From NCBI GenBank assembly GCA_043757775.1, contig JAYVOS010000074.1, positions 1-32,383 of the forward strand: a DNA stretch of 32,383 nt, read 5' to 3'. Positions 10,731 to 24,893 of this stretch are shown here, piece by piece. Each line of letters begins with the position of its first letter. The stretch's first letter is position 1. Source of the DNA: Chloracidobacterium sp. Its GTDB lineage: Bacteria > Acidobacteriota > Blastocatellia > Pyrinomonadales > Pyrinomonadaceae. The notes under the pieces are model-generated. The model was not told the origin of the DNA, ran no database searches, and was given only the letters and a program-made list of their open reading frames with translations. Both the position numbers and the translations under genes were made by a program.

Positions 10731-11585
10731 CTATTGAGGCCATTCGCCGGAATATGAGAGGTCGGCACGGCCGGTGAGGAGGATCTCGTCATCGTCACGC
10801 CAGAGGACGTCGGTCGTGCCACCCTCGGAATGGACCATGACCTTGCGGTCGGTTTTTAACATAAATGCCGAGAGGACAGCGGCTCCGGCTGAGCATGTGC
10901 CTGAGGCTGACGTTTCACCGGCACCGCGTTCCCAGATGCGGAGCTCGATATTTTCGCGGTCGTCGATCTTTACAAAGACGATATTGGCACGCTCGGGAAA
11001 TTTCTCGTGCGTTTCCATCGCCTTGCCTACTGCTCGCCAGTCGAAATTGAAATTTTCGACAAAGATACATGCAACCGGATTACCGACATTGACGGCGGAA
11101 AACGCATAGTGGCGCCCATCGACGATGATCGGTTCGTTGATGACATGATCACGACGAGTCTCGGTCAGAACGGGAACCTCTTCGCTGGCAAATCGGGGCT
11201 TGCCGATCTCGGCCTCGAACCAAAATTCGCCGTCACCTTTGCGCGTCATCAAGTGATAATTCTTTACACCGCTGCGCGTCCGCAGGCGAAGATCAGTGTC
11301 CGTCCAGATGTCTTTGTAATGCAGATACGCGACAGCGCAGCGTGTACCGTTACCCGAAAATCCGACGATGCTGCCGTCCGGATTAACGATCTCGCAATGA
11401 TAATCAGCTTCGATGTCGTCGAGCTTTTCCAGCACGGCGATCCCGTCCGAACCGGCTCCGGTATTACGGTGGCACATGGCTATCGCTAATTGATCAAGCG
11501 GTAGCGAATCGGGAATATCTTCTCGCTCAATGACTATATAGTCATTGCCAAAGCCCTGAAATTTGCTGAATGGAATAGCGGTCAT
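10731..11585 (-). CDS. dapF: Diaminopimelate epimerase
   Basis: FSKFQGFGNDYIVIE N-terminus, GNGTRC (first catalytic Cys) and ASGTCSAGAA (second Cys), 284 aa. Confidence 0.93.
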   Translation of the reverse strand: MTAIPFSKFQGFGNDYIVIEREDIPDSLPLDQLAIAMCHRNTGAGSDGIAVLEKLDDIEADYHCEIVNPDGSIVGFSGNGTRCAVAYLHYKDIWTDTDLRLRTRSGVKNYHLMTRKGDGEFWFEAEIGKPRFASEEVPVLTETRRDHVINEPIIVDGRHYAFSAVNVGNPVACIFVENFNFDWRAVGKAMETHEKFPERANIVFVKIDDRENIELRIWERGAGETSASGTCSAGAAVLSAFMLKTDRKVMVHSEGGTTDVLWRDDDEILLTGRADLSYSGEWPQ

Positions 11586-20209: not shown

Positions 20210-21199
20210 ATGCTCCGCGACGCACACAACCGTACGATCCGCGATCTGCGAATTTCGCTGACCGATAGGTGTAACTTTCGCTGCTTTTACTGTCTGCCAA
20301 ACGGTGAGCCGCCGCTAGCACGAAAGGAGACAATTCTTACATTCGAAGAGATCGCGTATCTCTCGGATATTTTCGTCTCGCTCGGCATCGAAAAGATACG
20401 GTTAACAGGAGGCGAGCCGCTCATTCGCAAAGACGTTCCCCTGCTTGTCCGCGAACTCTCGAAACTAAAGCCTGCATTACAAGACCTCGCCCTGACGACA
20501 AACGGCTTTGATTTCCCTCGTCACGCTGCGGCATTAAAAGATGCCGGACTCGACCGTGTAACACTCAGCCTCGACAGCCTAGACCGTGACAAATTTCTCG
20601 ACATTACCGGGGTCGATGCTCTGGACAAAGTTTATGAGGCGATAGACGCGGCAAAAGAATTTGGCTTTGATCCGGTAAAGATCAACGCCTGCATTGTTCG
20701 CGGCCGCAATGACGACGAGATGGTCGCATTCACCAAGTATGCCCGCGAGCACAATGTTGCGATGCGGTTTATCGAGTTTATGCCGCTCGACAGCGGCCAC
20801 GAATGGAGCCGGGAAATGGTTGTTCCGGGCCGCGAAATTCACGACACTATCAATACGATTTATCCACTCAAACTAAAAGAAACTTCACGCGGCAGCGAAA
20901 CGGCGTGGAAATATGAATTCGCCGATGGTGCTCCCGGCGAGATCGGCATCATCGCACCCGTCACGGAGATGTTTTGCGGAGCCTGCTCCCGCATCCGCCT
21001 AACCGCCGACGGCCAGATCCGCACCTGCCTCTTTTCAACCACCGAACACAATCTCCGCGACTTTGTCCGCAACGGTGCAGCGCGGGACGAGATCGTCGGC
21101 TTTATCGAAGATGTTGTAATGAAAAAAGAACCGCGTCATTACATCAACGACGCGGAGTTCGTGCCCGCAAGCCGGACAATGAGTTTTATTGGGGGTTAA
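20210..21199 (+). CDS. moaA: GTP 3',8-cyclase (molybdenum cofactor biosynthesis protein A)
   Basis: Radical-SAM CNFRCFYC, LTGGEPL, and a C-terminal CGACSRIRLTADGQIRTCLF cluster. 329 aa. Confidence 0.95.
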   Translation: MLRDAHNRTIRDLRISLTDRCNFRCFYCLPNGEPPLARKETILTFEEIAYLSDIFVSLGIEKIRLTGGEPLIRKDVPLLVRELSKLKPALQDLALTTNGFDFPRHAAALKDAGLDRVTLSLDSLDRDKFLDITGVDALDKVYEAIDAAKEFGFDPVKINACIVRGRNDDEMVAFTKYAREHNVAMRFIEFMPLDSGHEWSREMVVPGREIHDTINTIYPLKLKETSRGSETAWKYEFADGAPGEIGIIAPVTEMFCGACSRIRLTADGQIRTCLFSTTEHNLRDFVRNGAARDEIVGFIEDVVMKKEPRHYINDAEFVPASRTMSFIGG

Positions 21200-21200
21200 G

Positions 21201-21329
21201 TTAAGGTTTGAGTTCCATGGGCAAGAGACGGTTTCCATGAACTAAAGTGCCAACGATTATCTCGTCGCCAAAGATTCGGTAGATCGCATACGTGACCCTA
21301 AATTTTTTTATTAACCATGCAAACTGCCT
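21201..21329 (-). pseudogene. Start-less C-terminal stub of a RelE/ParE-superfamily toxin
   Basis: The minus-strand reading directly after the XRE stop, in the same frame, is RQFAWLIKKFRVTYAIYRIFGDEIIVGTLVHGNRLLPMELKP*. The xYxIxYRIxGDEIxIxxxxHGxR tail is the typical ParE/RelE C-terminus. There is no start codon and the N-terminal ~55 aa are absent. Confidence 0.55.
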
Positions 21330-21638
21330 TCACTTAGCGGCAGTTCTATTTTTCTCACCTAAACTCTTTTCATAACTTGGAATAATATTCGGCAGGTTAA
21401 GAGCATCATCAACTAATACTTCTAAATAAACATTTGCTAATTTGGCGTAGGCATAAAGCACCAATAAAGGTGGTTCACGCTCGCCGCGTTCATAACCCGA
21501 TATACTGCTTCTATTGATGCTGGAGTTTTGGCATCCAAGTTTGATCAATATCCCGTCTTGAGAAAGTCTCAGCGTTTCCCTGATCTGTCCAAGTTTCTCG
21601 GCCAATCTAGAAGACCTTTCCCGCGAAGCTCTGCCCAT
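21330..21638 (-). CDS. XRE-family helix-turn-helix transcriptional regulator
   Basis: HTH_3-type core LRLSQDGILIKLG...SSISGYERGEREPPLLVLYAYAKLANVYLEVLVDD. 102 aa, divergent from the SET gene. Confidence 0.8.
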   Translation of the reverse strand: MGRASRERSSRLAEKLGQIRETLRLSQDGILIKLGCQNSSINRSSISGYERGEREPPLLVLYAYAKLANVYLEVLVDDALNLPNIIPSYEKSLGEKNRTAAK

Positions 21639-21684
21639 AACAAAGTTTTAACCTTGTTATGAAATGCTTTCTTGTCTTCAATAG

Positions 21685-21713
21685 TTGAAATCAGCACTAT
21701 TTAGTGCTATGCT
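21685..21713 (+). promoter_or_regulatory. Candidate promoter of the SET operon with a palindromic operator in the spacer
   Basis: TTGAAA (21685-21690), a 17-nt spacer, then TATGCT (21708-21713). The perfect inverted repeat AGCACT-ATTT-AGTGCT (21693-21708) fills the spacer. Confidence 0.4.
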
Positions 21714-21829
21714 TCGCAGGAAAATGAAACCGTATGGCAGAGGAAATCAAGAAAATTCCCAAAACCCCAGTATTCGAACGATTGGGCATTCTGGGAACTG
21801 AGCGTTGAACGGTTTCACGCTGTAAATCA

Positions 21830-22354
21830 ATGCTCGTAGCCTTTAATCAACAGAATGTGTATTGCGGACGCAGCCCTCTGGGCTATGGATTCACGCATTT
21901 TGCTAAGAAACATTTAGAGAAGGGGCAGGTTGTGGTGAAGGGGTACGGAAGAGTAATTGACCATCAGACAGGTCATTTTTCGATCCAGATGGAATTCACA
22001 AGACACTTTCTCCCTACCAAGTGGACAGGCAGATATTGGAACCACTCATGCGAAGCAAACTGTTATGCGAGAACGAGAAAGGACGGCTTTCCTGAGTTGG
22101 TGGCTCTACGAAATATTCCACCGGGGGATGAGATCACCTATTCCTACTATATGACGGAATATCAATGGTGTCGGAGCGCTAAAGAAAATACCTTGCGTTG
22201 CTTATGTAAGACTGATGTATGTAACGGACAAATAATGTCGTTCTTTCAGCTACCGGAAGTGCAGAAGCGGGCGATTCTCGATCGAGGGACTCTTTCCGAT
22301 TATCTAAAGTCGTACTTTCCAGCTAAAGCAACAACGTCGTATAAGGAGATTTAA
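21830..22354 (+). CDS. SET-domain protein with post-SET zinc motif (putative protein-lysine N-methyltransferase)
   Basis: Motifs RYWNHSCEANC (NHSCxxN), GDEITYSYY (ELxxxY-type) and GYGFTHFAKKHLEKGQVV (N-SET GxG region), plus the post-SET CLCKTDVC (CxCx4C). Confidence 0.85.
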   Translation: MLVAFNQQNVYCGRSPLGYGFTHFAKKHLEKGQVVVKGYGRVIDHQTGHFSIQMEFTRHFLPTKWTGRYWNHSCEANCYARTRKDGFPELVALRNIPPGDEITYSYYMTEYQWCRSAKENTLRCLCKTDVCNGQIMSFFQLPEVQKRAILDRGTLSDYLKSYFPAKATTSYKEI

Positions 22355-22569
22355 AAATATGGAACGTGCGTTTGGGGCATTGTCTTTCAGTAAAGTGGAC
22401 GCTTCGACTAAACGCGGGGAATAAAGATGGAGATTTGGTCAAATACTGACTTGCCGTATCAGTGTCTGCTGGACGTCGAACCCACGACTTCCTTTCAAAC
22501 GGCTATTTGAGCCGTGGTCAAGAACGGCGTAATTCTCCCTGCACGTGAAAATTTTTGAGTGAATAAAAT

Positions 22570-22938
22570 ATGTCCGTCGAACAGCTAAAATTGCTCTGTA
22601 TCATTATCGGCATGACGCTCGTATCGGGATTTGCTGATTCTCAAGGGTTTATACACGCCGCCAAAATGTGGGAGAACGGTAGCATAGTCTGGACTGAGTT
22701 TCTTAAATCGGCCGTAGGTTTTGTGGTTGGGATTACAACATACTGGGTGGCCGTGAAGTATCTCGGTGAGTTTGGACTTCTCTCACCGGAGATACAAACA
22801 CTGATATGGTTCGGTGTAACAATGATCGGCGTTGCGCTGGTTAGTCGCAGGTTTTTTTCCTGGCAAACCATAGATCAAATAGTAGGCGCTGTGGTTTTTA
22901 TGGGAGTATGCTGGCTTCTATCCCGCACGGGAGCGTAA
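22570..22938 (+). CDS. Small integral membrane protein with 4 predicted TM helices, unknown function
   Basis: 122 aa with four hydrophobic ~20-aa segments. No family recognised. It lies between the SET and AdoMetDC genes on the same strand. Confidence 0.55.
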   Translation: MSVEQLKLLCIIIGMTLVSGFADSQGFIHAAKMWENGSIVWTEFLKSAVGFVVGITTYWVAVKYLGEFGLLSPEIQTLIWFGVTMIGVALVSRRFFSWQTIDQIVGAVVFMGVCWLLSRTGA

Positions 22939-23051
22939 CGCCCAATTTAATCCTCTCACCTCTTGGCAAATACAAGCACGATTTAGGGCTTCAGGCTTAA
23001 TCTAAAGAGTCTGACTTATGATGAGGAAATCCCGAGTTTTTCTAGAAGAAG

Positions 23052-23453
23052 ATGGCAACTAACCATTTCGGAGAGCATTTAACAATTGACGGCTACGGCG
23101 GTTCATACGCGAAGTTGGCGGACAACGAGATCGTTCTTAAATGTTTGAACGATCTTCCCGAACAACTCGGAATGAATATACTCGCCGAGGCCGTTGTTCA
23201 TTTTGCACCCGAAGGTGAAGGAAAAGACCCCGGCGGATGGAGCGGTTTTGTCATTGTCATGGAAAGCCACATCAGCATACATACATTTCCCGGCAGAGGC
23301 TTCGTAAGTGCCGACGTTTATACGTGTAAGAATGGGATGGACGTTGAGTTTATTCTTAAGTATTTCAAAGAAATATTCCTTCTCAACGATATTGAGTATC
23401 ATTTAATAATTCGGGGAACAAAATACCCGATAGCGAATATTGTCGATGTATAG
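23052..23453 (+). CDS. speH: S-adenosylmethionine decarboxylase proenzyme, small pyruvoyl-dependent (type 1) form
   Basis: FGEHLTIDGYG N-terminus, the self-cleavage/pyruvoyl motif VMESHISIHTFPG, then DVYTC. The 133-aa length matches Bacillus/Thermotoga-type AdoMetDC. Substrate specificity is unverified. Confidence 0.8.
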   Translation: MATNHFGEHLTIDGYGGSYAKLADNEIVLKCLNDLPEQLGMNILAEAVVHFAPEGEGKDPGGWSGFVIVMESHISIHTFPGRGFVSADVYTCKNGMDVEFILKYFKEIFLLNDIEYHLIIRGTKYPIANIVDV

Positions 23454-23693
23454 CTAAAGGGTACGAACCGACATATACTCTTTGAAATCATCGAGTGGTT
23501 CATCAAAGTCTGGAGCCATTGAAATCAGACCTTTGGCGCTGCCGAACCGCCGCTTGCGTTTTTTTTGGGTGCGCGGAACAAGCTGCACAGACAAATTGTC
23601 ATCCCGCGTGATAAAAATTTCTTCGCCTGCTGCTGCGGCATCTATAAGCCCGACTAAGTTTGTTTTTGCTTCATTAAGCGTAACTGTTTGCAT
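23454..23693 (-). CDS. Phd/YefM-family type II antitoxin (orphan)
   Basis: MQTVTLNEAKTNLVGLIDAAAAGEEIFITRDDNLSVQLVP is the classic Phd/YefM N-domain. The C-terminal tail is GSAKGLISMAPDFDEPLDDFKEYM. The start is taken at ATG 23693. No toxin ORF lies downstream, and its stop abuts the speH stop (TAG|CTA). Confidence 0.75.
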   Translation of the reverse strand: MQTVTLNEAKTNLVGLIDAAAAGEEIFITRDDNLSVQLVPRTQKKRKRRFGSAKGLISMAPDFDEPLDDFKEYMSVRTL

Positions 23694-23710
23694 ATATCTC
23701 ACCAAACTGC

Positions 23711-23737
23711 ATTATACGTCAAAACAAAAAATTGCAA
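23711..23737 (-). promoter_or_regulatory. Candidate promoter of the antitoxin gene
   Basis: On the minus strand, TTGCAA (23737-23732), a 15-nt spacer, then TATAAT (23716-23711), 18 nt upstream of ATG 23693. The spacer is short and ATTGCAAT is palindromic. Confidence 0.3.
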
Positions 23738-23756
23738 TGAAACATTTTCTAGACAG

Positions 23757-24893
23757 TTAGTTCTGCCTCCTCCCCGCCATATCCAGACCGACTGCCGCGA
23801 CTAGGATCGAGCCTTTGATGATGTCCTGCATAAAATCGCGGACGTTGAGCAGCGACATTCCGTTATCGAGGCTTGCCATTATTAATGCACCAAGACACGC
23901 GCCGAATATTGTGCCGCGTCCGCCCATAAGCGATGCTCCGCCGATGACGCATGCTGCGATGGCATCGAGTTCTTTTAAAACGCCGGCGTCCGGTGCGGCA
24001 CTACCGACACGGGCCGTGAAAATAAGAGAAGCAATACCCGTTAAGGCGCCGAGTAGAGCATAAACTTTAATGATGTTTCGTTTGTTATTGATACCGGAGA
24101 GCCGTGCGGCGTCGGCGTTGCCGCCGATAGCGTAAAGGTAGCGGCCAAATGTGGTCGAGTTGGTCAAAAACCCGCCGAGCAATGCGACCGCAAGCAATAT
24201 CAGCACCGGTATCGGCACACCCTGATATGAATTCATCACCCATATAAACGCGACGATGCCGCCGACGGGGATGATCGCTTTGAGCAGTTCATTGCCGTAA
24301 TTTGCCTCGCCGAGGCCGTAATCCTTAGCGACCCGCGCGTTGCGATAAGCCATAAATAAAACAAAAGCTATTGCCGCTGCTGCTAATATCCAGCCGACCG
24401 ACAGCGGCAGATTATTGTTGCCGATGGCCTTAAAAGTCTCATTAGATATCGGAATCGTGTTGCCGCCGAGCAGCCATTTCACCGCACCGCGCCAAGCAAG
24501 CAGTCCGCCTAGAGTTACGATAAATGCCGGGATATTAAGATAAGCCGTCAATGCTCCGTGAAATGTTCCGATAACGACACCTACCACGATCGCGGCAACT
24601 ATAGCCGTCGGCAGGCCGTATTCCATCACGGTCACAGCATAGGCCGTAATGCCGCCCGCAAACCCCAGCACCGAACCGACCGAGAGATCGATATTGCCGG
24701 ACACAATCACCATAAGCATACCCACCGCAATTATTGCTGTGACCGACATCTGCGTCATCAGGTTAGACAGGTTACGCGGCGTAAGAAATATACCGTCCGT
24801 CGCCCAGTGAAAATACACCCAGATCAACCCGAGGACGGCGATCATAATGTATGCCCGTAAACTGGCTTTGTTAATTTTTGTCTTTTCTTCCAT
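23757..24893 (-). CDS. xylH: Sugar ABC transporter permease, XylH-like
   Basis: Close by-eye resemblance to E. coli XylH along its length (NLSNLMTQ..., IDLSVGS, AIGGNADAARLSGIN, ELDAIAACVIGGASLMGG, MASLDNGMSL). Confidence 0.8.
   Translation of the reverse strand: MEEKTKINKASLRAYIMIAVLGLIWVYFHWATDGIFLTPRNLSNLMTQMSVTAIIAVGMLMVIVSGNIDLSVGSVLGFAGGITAYAVTVMEYGLPTAIVAAIVVGVVIGTFHGALTAYLNIPAFIVTLGGLLAWRGAVKWLLGGNTIPISNETFKAIGNNNLPLSVGWILAAAAIAFVLFMAYRNARVAKDYGLGEANYGNELLKAIIPVGGIVAFIWVMNSYQGVPIPVLILLAVALLGGFLTNSTTFGRYLYAIGGNADAARLSGINNKRNIIKVYALLGALTGIASLIFTARVGSAAPDAGVLKELDAIAACVIGGASLMGGRGTIFGACLGALIMASLDNGMSLLNVRDFMQDIIKGSILVAAVGLDMAGRRQN

Follow-up and report, generated by a model that had tools for sequence, protein, structure and literature searches.

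The locus between moaA and a xylH-like gene in Chloracidobacterium sp., a host described as a soil/sediment acidobacterium, raises the question of how a headless toxin gene and a toxin-less antitoxin gene came to lie on the two sides of about 2.2 kb of unrelated DNA. We analyzed a stretch of 32,383 nucleotides (contig JAYVOS010000074.1, hereafter the window), for which a preliminary description had proposed that a single phd-parE module was split by an inserted cassette. Our analysis points to another answer: most probably the locus is a high-turnover spot, in which the debris of two unrelated toxin-antitoxin (TA) modules surrounds a patchwork of newer DNA. The features of the locus are:

20210–21199, plus strand: moaA, radical-SAM GTP cyclase, the conserved left anchor (Pfam Radical_SAM and Mob_synth_C)
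21201–21290, minus strand: remnant of a ParE-family toxin gene, last 29 codons and stop (syntenic ParE profile, tblastn, position)
21291–21329, minus strand: junction zone of 13 codons, free of stops, that separates the XRE stop from the ParE remnant and has no homology detected to either
21330–21638, minus strand: XRE-family HTH regulator, 102 aa, intact, part of the imported DNA (Pfam HTH_3)
21636–21661, no strand assigned: palindrome of 12+12 nt that covers the start codon of XRE (inverted repeat I8, complementarity 92%)
21830–22354, plus strand: SET-domain methyltransferase gene, 174 aa (Pfam SET, E = 4.6e-11)
22427–22537, plus strand: third pseudogene, 35 codons from the 5′ part of a PRMT/TRM5-like methyltransferase gene (tblastn, nucleotide matches)
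22570–22938, plus strand: membrane protein gene, 122 aa, unnamed family (no Pfam match)
23052–23453, plus strand: speH-like S-adenosylmethionine decarboxylase proenzyme gene, 133 aa (Pfam AdoMet_dc, E = 4.6e-24)
23454–23693, minus strand: orphan Phd-N/VapB-C antitoxin gene, 79 aa (PF10047, PF02604, NF050009; L086 orthologue)
23757–24893, minus strand: xylH-like sugar ABC permease gene, the conserved right anchor (Pfam BPD_transp_2; synteny)

Both anchors belong to a tonB-queG-moaA...xylH-xylG synteny that is present in 42 related loci, and the length of the moaA-xylH gap in these 42 related species with both anchors ranges from -3/+2 bp up to 5266 bp. The gaps of the relatives hold ParE pairs and PIN, HEPN, BrnT, DUF433 and HNH genes together with metabolic genes, TA genes being frequent among them. 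For the five intervening genes of the window (XRE, SET, membrane protein, speH and phd), the 42 gaps contain no homologue. One locus (L002) is a mirror case, in which an antitoxin remnant was retained and a HEPN pair stands in place of the toxin. The convergent moaA|xylH junction of the Pyrinomonadaceae is most probably a high-turnover spot. Elements bearing vapC are common there.

The closest relative found, L086 (96% amino acid identity for MoaA and 98% for XylH), has the gene order xylH-phd-vapC(PIN)-HNH-moaA. At the nucleotide level even this genome is only 87–91% identical, with 91% over moaA and 87% over phd-xylH-xylG (2052 nt, unbroken from phd codon 74), and the homology breaks at position 21198 on the left and 23471 on the right. 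The right-hand break falls at the last phd codon, so that vapC is missing and the phd gene of the window reads five codons into foreign DNA. The empty site predicted in the preliminary description (moaA, intact toxin, phd, xylH) was not found as such; instead, there are two separate forms of the site, moaA-parE-antitoxin-xylH (L055, L044, L008) and moaA-HNH-vapC-phd-xylH (L086). In no sampled genome do the ParE and VapBC modules stand side by side, and an ancestral moaA-parE-antitoxin...vapC-phd-xylH arrangement is therefore a reconstruction.

On the left side, the minus-strand frame 21204–21329 comprises 42 codons and translates as RQFAWLIKKFRVTYAIYRIFGDEIIVGTLVHGNRLLPMELKP. The coordinates given for it in the preliminary description were confirmed: the frame has no usable start codon and opens directly 3′ of, and in frame with, the TGA of the XRE gene (21330–21332), start-type codons in frame are confined to its last 8 codons, and its stop (21201–21203) is 1 nt apart from that of moaA (21197–21199). 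The stub has neither a complete ORF of about 90–100 codons nor a cognate antitoxin gene directly upstream. Its assignment as a RelE/ParE C-terminus stood for the last 29 codons and fell for the first 13. Searched alone against Pfam and NCBIfam, the 42-aa stub gave no match at E <= 1, PF05016 included, an outcome which the preliminary description had named among those that would refute its reading and which is superseded by a profile from five syntenic ParE toxins. This profile matches the stub with E = 4.4e-6 among 955 six-frame segments of the window, every other segment scoring no better than E = 7. The alignment covers profile positions 70–99 of 99 and begins at stub residue 14; the homology, and with it the identification, is limited to 29 residues (21204–21290), the 13 codons at 21291–21329 being not homologous. 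In tblastn, the toxin of L033 is 52% identical to the stub over residues 73–99.

Intact 99-aa ParE homologues adjoin the moaA stop in four related Pyrinomonadaceae (L008, L033, L044, L055), in the same slot as the stub, and these toxins match PF05016 at E = 2e-18 to 3e-17 as well as the PDB ParE chains 6x0a, 5cw7 and 5czf. The resemblance to ParDE modules (PF05016) lies in the alignment of the stub to the beta-strands and tail at the C-terminus (...YRI...VHGxR...LKP) of the 99-aa toxins and, in the relatives, in an antitoxin gene that is located upstream and overlaps the toxin gene. In contrast to such modules, the window keeps 29 of 99 codons, no start codon and no antitoxin; a search of the window with a profile of the ParE-linked antitoxin yielded nothing (best E = 2.6). 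The partner antitoxin of the relatives (62–65 aa, LPxDxxIEDxQYxLYV; L008, L033, L044, L055, L037) is not of the Phd type. Nor is it a classical ParD, since searches of Pfam, NCBIfam and PDB gave no match for it. Judged by profile and position, the 29-codon frame next to moaA is the C-terminal remnant of a ParE-family toxin gene. L086 carries no ParE trace, so the stub could stem from recombination through moaA and not from descent.

The XRE gene directly upstream of the stub, on the same strand and in frame, offers another origin for it, namely that both arrived together as one HigA-like HTH antitoxin/RelE-ParE toxin module with a 5′-deleted toxin. HTH antitoxins with RelE-fold toxin partners exist, and the XRE protein has a weak MqsA-like match (E = 0.019). 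Nevertheless, we regard a common arrival as very unlikely. The XRE protein has full-length homologues with up to 80% identity, and the gene lies in a nucleotide block that is shared with unrelated loci (21342–21717 with 76–78% identity to L097 and L101, 21333–21645 with 73% identity to L099), but none of these three loci has a ParE/RelE partner, and the shared block ends at 21333–21342, at the XRE stop. Furthermore, homologues of the stub fill the same moaA-proximal slot in relatives without XRE, and an in-frame placement has a 1-in-3 chance.

On the right side, the phd ORF (23693–23454) is intact and has a GGTGAG ribosome-binding site, its TAG adjoins the stop of the convergent speH gene (23451–23456), and no toxin ORF was found after it in the window, in agreement with the ORF coordinates described before. 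Codons 1–74 (23472–23693) are resident, and codons 75–79 (SVRTL) with the stop (23454–23471) come from foreign DNA; phd homologues are 74–75 aa long and end with ...FKEYM(E), which leaves the copy of the window with five extra codons. The preliminary description had already cautioned that the antitoxin tail is of a kind linked to VapC partners, and this was borne out: PF10047 (DUF2281/VapB C-terminal tail) reaches 33.6 bits, above its cut-off of 26.5, and the L086 orthologue overlaps a PIN/VapC gene. NF050009 (VapB) matches with E = 2.7e-15 and 56.6 bits, just below the equivalog cut-off of 60, the N-terminal Phd/YefM profile PF02604 with E = 1.7e-5 and 24.9 bits (gathering score 29.8) and TIGR01552 with 16.9 (cut-off 20.8). 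PDB sequence searches with Phd and with the ParE-linked antitoxin returned nothing.

The window antitoxin shares the DUF2281/VapB tail of VapBC systems in which this tail follows a Phd/YefM N-terminus (NF050009), its own Phd/YefM domain being putative, and as in such systems the orthologous loci have a PIN gene that begins only a few bases away from the antitoxin stop: a 128-aa PIN toxin gene overlaps this stop by 1 nt (TAATG) in L086 and by 4 nt in L087. The window differs in that it has no PIN gene or remnant, in that the native antitoxin stop was lost and five residues were gained, and in that its antitoxin scores just under two of three curated cut-offs. A search of the window for remnants of PIN, HNH and ParE-antitoxin genes found none (best PIN E = 1.5), and the local alignment of the window to the L086 vapC gene scored at the shuffle mean. 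An apparent 14/19 match between the 3′ end of speH and vapC codons 2–8 was rejected, as it is not above shuffle level.

It could be argued that the whole interval including phd is one imported low-GC island without any resident remnant, for the GC content is low in phd (0.46) and in the phd-xylH spacer (0.30) as well, and no Phd homologue was found among 80 species-level loci. This is difficult to reconcile with L086, which has a 93%-identical phd gene, overlapping vapC, in the same place, with homology unbroken through xylH into xylG. In addition, the dS between window and L086 is similar for phd (0.53) and xylH (0.56), and the ParE remnant occupies the slot of the relatives' intact ParE genes. 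We consider an island of this extent highly improbable.

These comparisons also decide on the single phd-parE module between xylH and moaA, in which a cassette would have replaced the 5′ part of the toxin gene. Phd/YefM antitoxins with RelE/ParE-fold toxin partners are known, and both remnants indeed share one strand and are ordered as such a module would require, with the antitoxin upstream and the toxin tail downstream. Against this, the antitoxin tail is of the DUF2281/VapB type, the phd orthologues of L086 and L087 overlap a PIN gene, the ParE toxins at this site use the different 62–65-aa antitoxin, and a Phd homologue is present in 0 of the 42 gaps. The reading as one split module is effectively refuted and retains only a minimal probability. 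The caveat of the preliminary description that the remnants may derive from separate TA loci that have decayed, and would then mark a hot spot for insertions, is upheld by the two module types of the relatives and the variable gap.

Either the antitoxin became an orphan only recently, or it is still subject to constraint. The intact frame, the retained ribosome-binding site, a conserved upstream region and a dN/dS of 0.07 against the paired L086 copy favor retention, and the lineage-specific replacements are no more than in that paired copy. It is conceivable, though unlikely, that selection has kept the Phd/VapB protein after the loss of vapC, either for anti-addiction or immunity against incoming vapC elements or as a regulator.

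The preliminary description rightly noted that the interval is AT-richer than its flanks: the GC content of 21200–23756 is 0.438, the lowest among all 2557-bp windows in the 32 kb (mean 0.496, sd 0.021), and GC3 is 0.38–0.50 in the interval versus 0.56–0.60 in moaA, xylH and xylG. The dip is modest, as tonB has a GC3 of 0.48 and some core genes of the window are similar. Next to the XRE gene, the palindrome at 21636–21661 is a candidate operator of the XRE/SET divergent region, and a promoter-like site (21685–21713, plus strand) faces SET; promoter and terminator scans gave counts not above shuffles. Homologues of SET (about 50% identity) occur in unrelated metagenomic contexts with no conserved cassette, and none was found in viral contigs. 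The methyltransferase pseudogene contains an in-frame stop and has lost about 240 codons. It is 66% identical to the methyltransferase of L105 over residues 65–99 (tblastn, E = 7e-10), with nucleotide matches to L105 and L106, and the full gene lies directly 5′ of the membrane protein homologues in L104–L106. The 122-aa membrane protein has 80 homologues, whose neighbors include methyltransferases and PvlArgDC, and this neighborhood of methyltransferase, membrane protein and pyruvoyl-dependent decarboxylase may be an undescribed amine/polyamine-modifying module. The speH product scores 80.4 bits with TIGR03330 (cut-off 75.65), its sequence includes the ES-H self-cleavage motif, and the stop codon of the gene lies 17 nt inside the right breakpoint. 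The intervening DNA of about 2.2 kb (approximately 21291–23470) is a patchwork of at least three blocks with an internal pseudogene and not the one cassette that had been assumed.

All ORFs in 21200–23756 are accounted for and no recombinase gene is among them. Short direct repeats flanking the interval, for which the preliminary description had suggested a search, were not found: no exact match shared by the two junction zones exceeds 6 nt, a length near the lower limit of what shuffled sequences give (at least 6 nt in 282 of 300 shuffles). A 10/11 repeat (D11) at 21320 and 23703 is at chance level (expected 0.79 times), its right copy lying in resident DNA, and in general direct or inverted repeats at the junctions are not beyond chance. 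Scans of the 32-kb window returned neither a tRNA or tmRNA gene nor an Rfam match, and PADLOC detected among the intervening proteins only weak generic HTH matches for XRE (E >= 1.6e-4) and nothing for SET, the membrane protein, speH and phd. The locus resembles integrase-mediated islands and integron cassettes in having lower-GC accessory DNA between conserved genes with TA genes near; it differs from them in the absence of a recombinase, a tRNA, att-like direct repeats, attC and inverted repeats, and in its content, a mosaic with an internal pseudogene and no discrete element.

In four sediment metagenome runs, Logan contigs agree with the window over 21127–21488 and 21525–23832 with zero differences. 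As both junctions are present in these independent contigs, an assembly chimera does not account for the arrangement. When the exact SET and phd proteins were looked up, all that came back were short Logan contigs of identical arrangement, none with an alternative allele, and a search of the read data for the joints of an alternative "empty" allele found none. The cassette contigs have a lower depth (4.5–5.4 versus 7.5–8), but the word depth of contigs is too coarse a measure for an interpretation. That the MAG-like source has joined unrelated sequences, or that the stub, which alone has no Pfam or NCBIfam match, is a chance open frame, is scarcely credible in view of these matches with zero differences, the gap between the profile hit and the next segment, and a position like that of the relatives' intact toxins.

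We therefore return to the high-turnover spot with debris of two unrelated modules, at which small accessory modules, in many cases type II TA pairs, would be gained, overwritten and eroded. One module would have been a parE-type toxin gene adjoining the moaA stop with its own 62–65-aa antitoxin gene upstream, of which the last 29 codons are left. The other would have been a phd/vapB-vapC(PIN) pair adjoining xylH, of which the antitoxin is intact and vapC was removed from its first codon on. The replacement may have occurred by illegitimate recombination or deletion, possibly following homologous exchange via the conserved flanks. Both remnants could be accounted for by a single event that reached from about codon 70 of parE to the start of vapC, but several successive events would fit equally. 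Presumably, only outcomes that remove or disable the toxins are viable, which would explain what is left, namely an antitoxin without its toxin and a headless toxin, and no intact toxin without its antitoxin.

For Photorhabdus, a clustering of TA systems in small spots of high turnover has been described, where pseudogenisation affects either only the toxin or both genes (Belot et al. 2026, PMC13617665). In Klebsiella, orphan antitoxins are a common finding (Horesh et al. 2020, PMC7192599). Our locus is in line with these findings in being a small TA spot between conserved core genes, in the loss by deletion or toxin pseudogenisation with an antitoxin outliving its toxin, and in a site that was filled independently many times. 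It departs from them in that the phylum is Acidobacteriota and uncultured, in that no transposase or integrase is seen at the spot in the window, and in that two different modules were eroded from the inner sides of one insertion. Both the clustering of TA genes at sites of high turnover and the loss of the toxin ahead of the antitoxin have been described before, and the moaA|xylH case reveals no new mechanism. The window is a clean example of this process: the death of chromosomal TA modules can be followed here with a left breakpoint defined to about 40 bases and a right breakpoint defined to a single base, the toxin side being overwritten by incoming DNA, with the headless toxin on one flank and the toxin-less antitoxin on the other. 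Furthermore, it extends the picture of small high-turnover TA spots from Gammaproteobacteria to uncultured Acidobacteriota, and as a variable spot across the family, moaA|xylH could be mined for accessory genes.

Re-reading of the region on both strands agreed with the preliminary description of its two ends. Next to xylH, the antitoxin ORF (phd, minus strand) is intact, with an ATG at 23693, a GGTGAG ribosome-binding site and a stop codon at 23454-23456 that abuts the stop (23451-23453) of the convergent speH-like gene, and no toxin ORF follows it. Next to moaA, a minus-strand frame of 42 codons (the stub) opens straight after, and in frame with, the TGA of the XRE gene (21330-21332), reads RQFAWLIKKFRVTYAIYRIFGDEIIVGTLVHGNRLLPMELKP without a usable start codon and ends at a stop (21201-21203) one base off the moaA stop (21197-21199). 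Both junctions are genuine, since over 21127-21488 and 21525-23832 the window is identical to Logan contigs of four runs on sediment metagenomes. Over 21203-23727 the exactly matching contigs have a word depth of 4.5-5.4, with values reaching about 8 in two of the runs, against 7.5-8 in the flanks; some cells may lack the insert, or the difference may simply come from GC or k-mer effects. The AT-richness described for the interval was borne out by windowed analysis: no 2557-bp window of the 32-kb sequence, where such windows average 0.496 (sd 0.021), has a lower GC content than 21200-23756 (0.438), and the GC3 of the interval genes is 0.38-0.50 versus 0.56-0.60 in moaA, xylH and xylG. This dip is genuine but modest, as tonB also has a GC3 of 0.48.

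A MoaA search of one-genome-per-species contigs retrieved 80 loci (these and the other loci compared carry L numbers), nearly all labelled Pyrinomonadaceae or other Acidobacteriota, with a conserved gene order tonB-queG-moaA(+) ... xylH-xylG(-). Both anchors are present in 42 of the loci, and the distance between moaA and xylH in them varies from -3/+2 bp (L006, L074) to 5266 bp (L009); it is 2557 bp in the window. Besides tryptophanase-like genes, methyltransferases and hydrolases, the relatives' gaps contain, among others:

ParE pairs: L008, L033, L044, L055
PIN genes: L012, L059, L016, L033
HEPN pair: L002
BrnT and DUF433 genes: L033
HNH endonuclease genes: L018, L052, L054

Homologues of XRE, SET, memb (a 122-aa membrane protein gene), speH or phd were found in none of the 42 gaps. 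The gap is a high-turnover spot across the family. The slot proximal to moaA, held by ParE in some relatives, is filled by a small HNH endonuclease gene in four others:

L086, 2569-2877
L018, 10988-11275
L052, 10987-11316
L054, 11131-12255

In L055, L033 and L044 a 99-aa gene on the convergent strand ends a few bases from the moaA stop, which is exactly the position of the stub; L008 carries a gene of the same type but with an in-frame stop, and the copy of L037 lies about 550 bp from moaA. These five toxins match PF05016 ParE_toxin (E = 2e-18 to 3e-17) and the PDB ParE chains 6x0a, 5cw7 and 5czf. A profile built from them was run on all 955 segments without a stop that the six frames of the window yield, and its sole match was the stub (profile positions 70-99 versus stub residues 14-42, E = 4.4e-6; runner-up E = 7). 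The stub is therefore the 3' end, 29 codons long (21204-21290), of a parE gene of the resident type. The RelE/ParE C-terminus described earlier for the frame holds for this part; codons 1-13 (21291-21329) have no homology to the toxin, and Pfam and NCBIfam models did not match the stub alone.

Upstream of parE and overlapping it, every relative carries the partner gene, whose product of 62-65 aa shows the motif LPxDxxIEDxQYxLYV (followed by ...G):

L055, 11271-11468
L033, 1407-1595
L008, 11279-11470
L044, 3584-3772

This antitoxin matches nothing in Pfam, NCBIfam or PDB, is not Phd, and left no detectable remnant in the window. Further erosion stages of the same ParE module are found in L002 and L008. 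L002 (3988-4968) is the mirror case, in which only an N-terminally truncated antitoxin is kept beside xylH and a HEPN gene paired with a 132-aa gene has taken the toxin's place. In L008 the toxin gene (10992-11291) is interrupted in frame by a stop at codon 13, unless this is an error of long-read assembly.

The phd product combines a weak Phd/YefM N-terminus (PF02604, 24.9 bits, under cut-off) with a DUF2281/VapB tail (PF10047, 33.6 bits, over cut-off) and scores 56.6 bits with NF050009 VapB (cut-off 60). Among the listed matches of its 519 homologues most are 74-75 aa long, with alignments that cover about 94% of the query; the retrieved sequences finish with ...DFKEYM(E), where the window protein runs on with SVRTL. 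The best match, 93% identical, comes from NCBI contig JBKJRA010000256 (L086), the closest relative found (MoaA 96%, XylH 98%, XylG 96% identity), in the order xylG-xylH-phd-PIN(128 aa)-HNH(102 aa)-moaA, with the vapC ATG overlapping the phd TAA (TAATG). In L087, a second locus with a phd homologue, a PIN gene likewise comes next. Nucleotide homology between window and L086 is 91% across moaA, breaks off at 21198 and restarts at 23471 with 87% through xylH into xylG. As the restart is at the last phd codon, phd is resident and vapC has been removed from its first codon on; the phd frame now reads five foreign codons up to its TAG. No PIN or HNH remnant was detectable in the window. Between window and L086, phd has an omega of 0.07 (dS 0.53, dN 0.036), similar to xylH (0.02) and moaA (0.06), and, set against outgroup proteins, the window copy does not seem to have gathered more replacements of its own lineage than the paired L086 copy; phd is either recently orphaned or still constrained.

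A single phd-parE module split by a cassette, as proposed in the preliminary description, is rejected, because the ParE partner in relatives is not Phd and the phd orthologue in L086 precedes a PIN gene. Its caveat, a PIN/VapC-type antitoxin and remnants of two decayed TA loci at a hot spot, is favoured instead and agrees with the VapB tail, the PIN genes of L086 and L087 and the gap variability.

The intervening DNA contains no recombinase, tRNA or Rfam feature, its proteins match no defence-system model, and the short direct repeats sought at the junctions do not exceed chance (a 10/11 repeat at 21320 and 23703, 0.79 expected, has its right copy in resident DNA). It is a mosaic. The XRE block (21342-21717, gene plus about 80 nt upstream) has 76-78% nucleotide identity to blocks at the unrelated loci L097 and L101 and 73% to L099 over 21333-21645, where full-length XRE always stands opposite a different divergent gene and without ParE neighbour. 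In L101 a gene for a 99-aa membrane protein and a distant SET gene hold that position, and TA pairs (DUF433/DUF5615, MazE) adjoin the block there. A 12+12-nt palindrome at 21636-21661 (CATAACAAAGTT/AACCTTGTTATG) spans the XRE start codon and is a candidate operator for XRE autoregulation or control of the divergent SET operon. Homologues of the SET gene (about 50% identity) lie in unrelated contexts. In the SET-memb spacer, 22427-22537 (+) retains the 5' 35 codons (MEIWSNTDLPYQCLLD...), interrupted by a stop in frame, of a methyltransferase gene of PRMT/TRM5 type (tblastn E = 7e-10); intact, this gene lies directly upstream of memb homologues in L104-L106, and the remnant is a third pseudogene with about 240 codons deleted. 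It is followed by memb (22570-22938, +; an unnamed family with 80 homologues, no Pfam match) and by an apparently intact speH (TIGR03330 over cut-off, ES-H cleavage motif). In the contexts L104-L110 and the window, memb genes often stand beside methyltransferases (PRMT-like in three, NNMT-like in one, SET in the window) and also beside pyruvoyl-dependent decarboxylases (PvlArgDC with agmatine deiminase in L105, AdoMetDC-like in the window); L109 has neither. The neighbourhood may represent an amine- or polyamine-related module.

The two remnants come from two different type II modules that once held opposite ends of the spot, and the inner parts of both, the 5' part of parE with its antitoxin and the whole vapC, have been replaced by patchwork DNA. 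The replacement would have occurred by illegitimate recombination or deletion, possibly following exchange through the conserved flanks, and one or several events fit equally well. Viability would act as a filter, tolerating loss or truncation of a toxin and not the loss of an antitoxin beside an intact toxin. No sampled genome has both modules side by side, and L086 shows no ParE trace. HNH nucleases at the moaA-proximal slot might contribute to turnover. In Photorhabdus, TA genes cluster in small high-turnover spots where one and the same site gained them several times independently, and erosion for the most part took away the toxin alone or both genes (185 and 186 copies versus 8 for the antitoxin alone; PMC13617665), and in Klebsiella orphan antitoxins are abundant, with anti-addiction among the proposed roles (PMC7192599). 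The moaA-xylH spot is the same kind of system rather than a new one, and adds a further example in another phylum.
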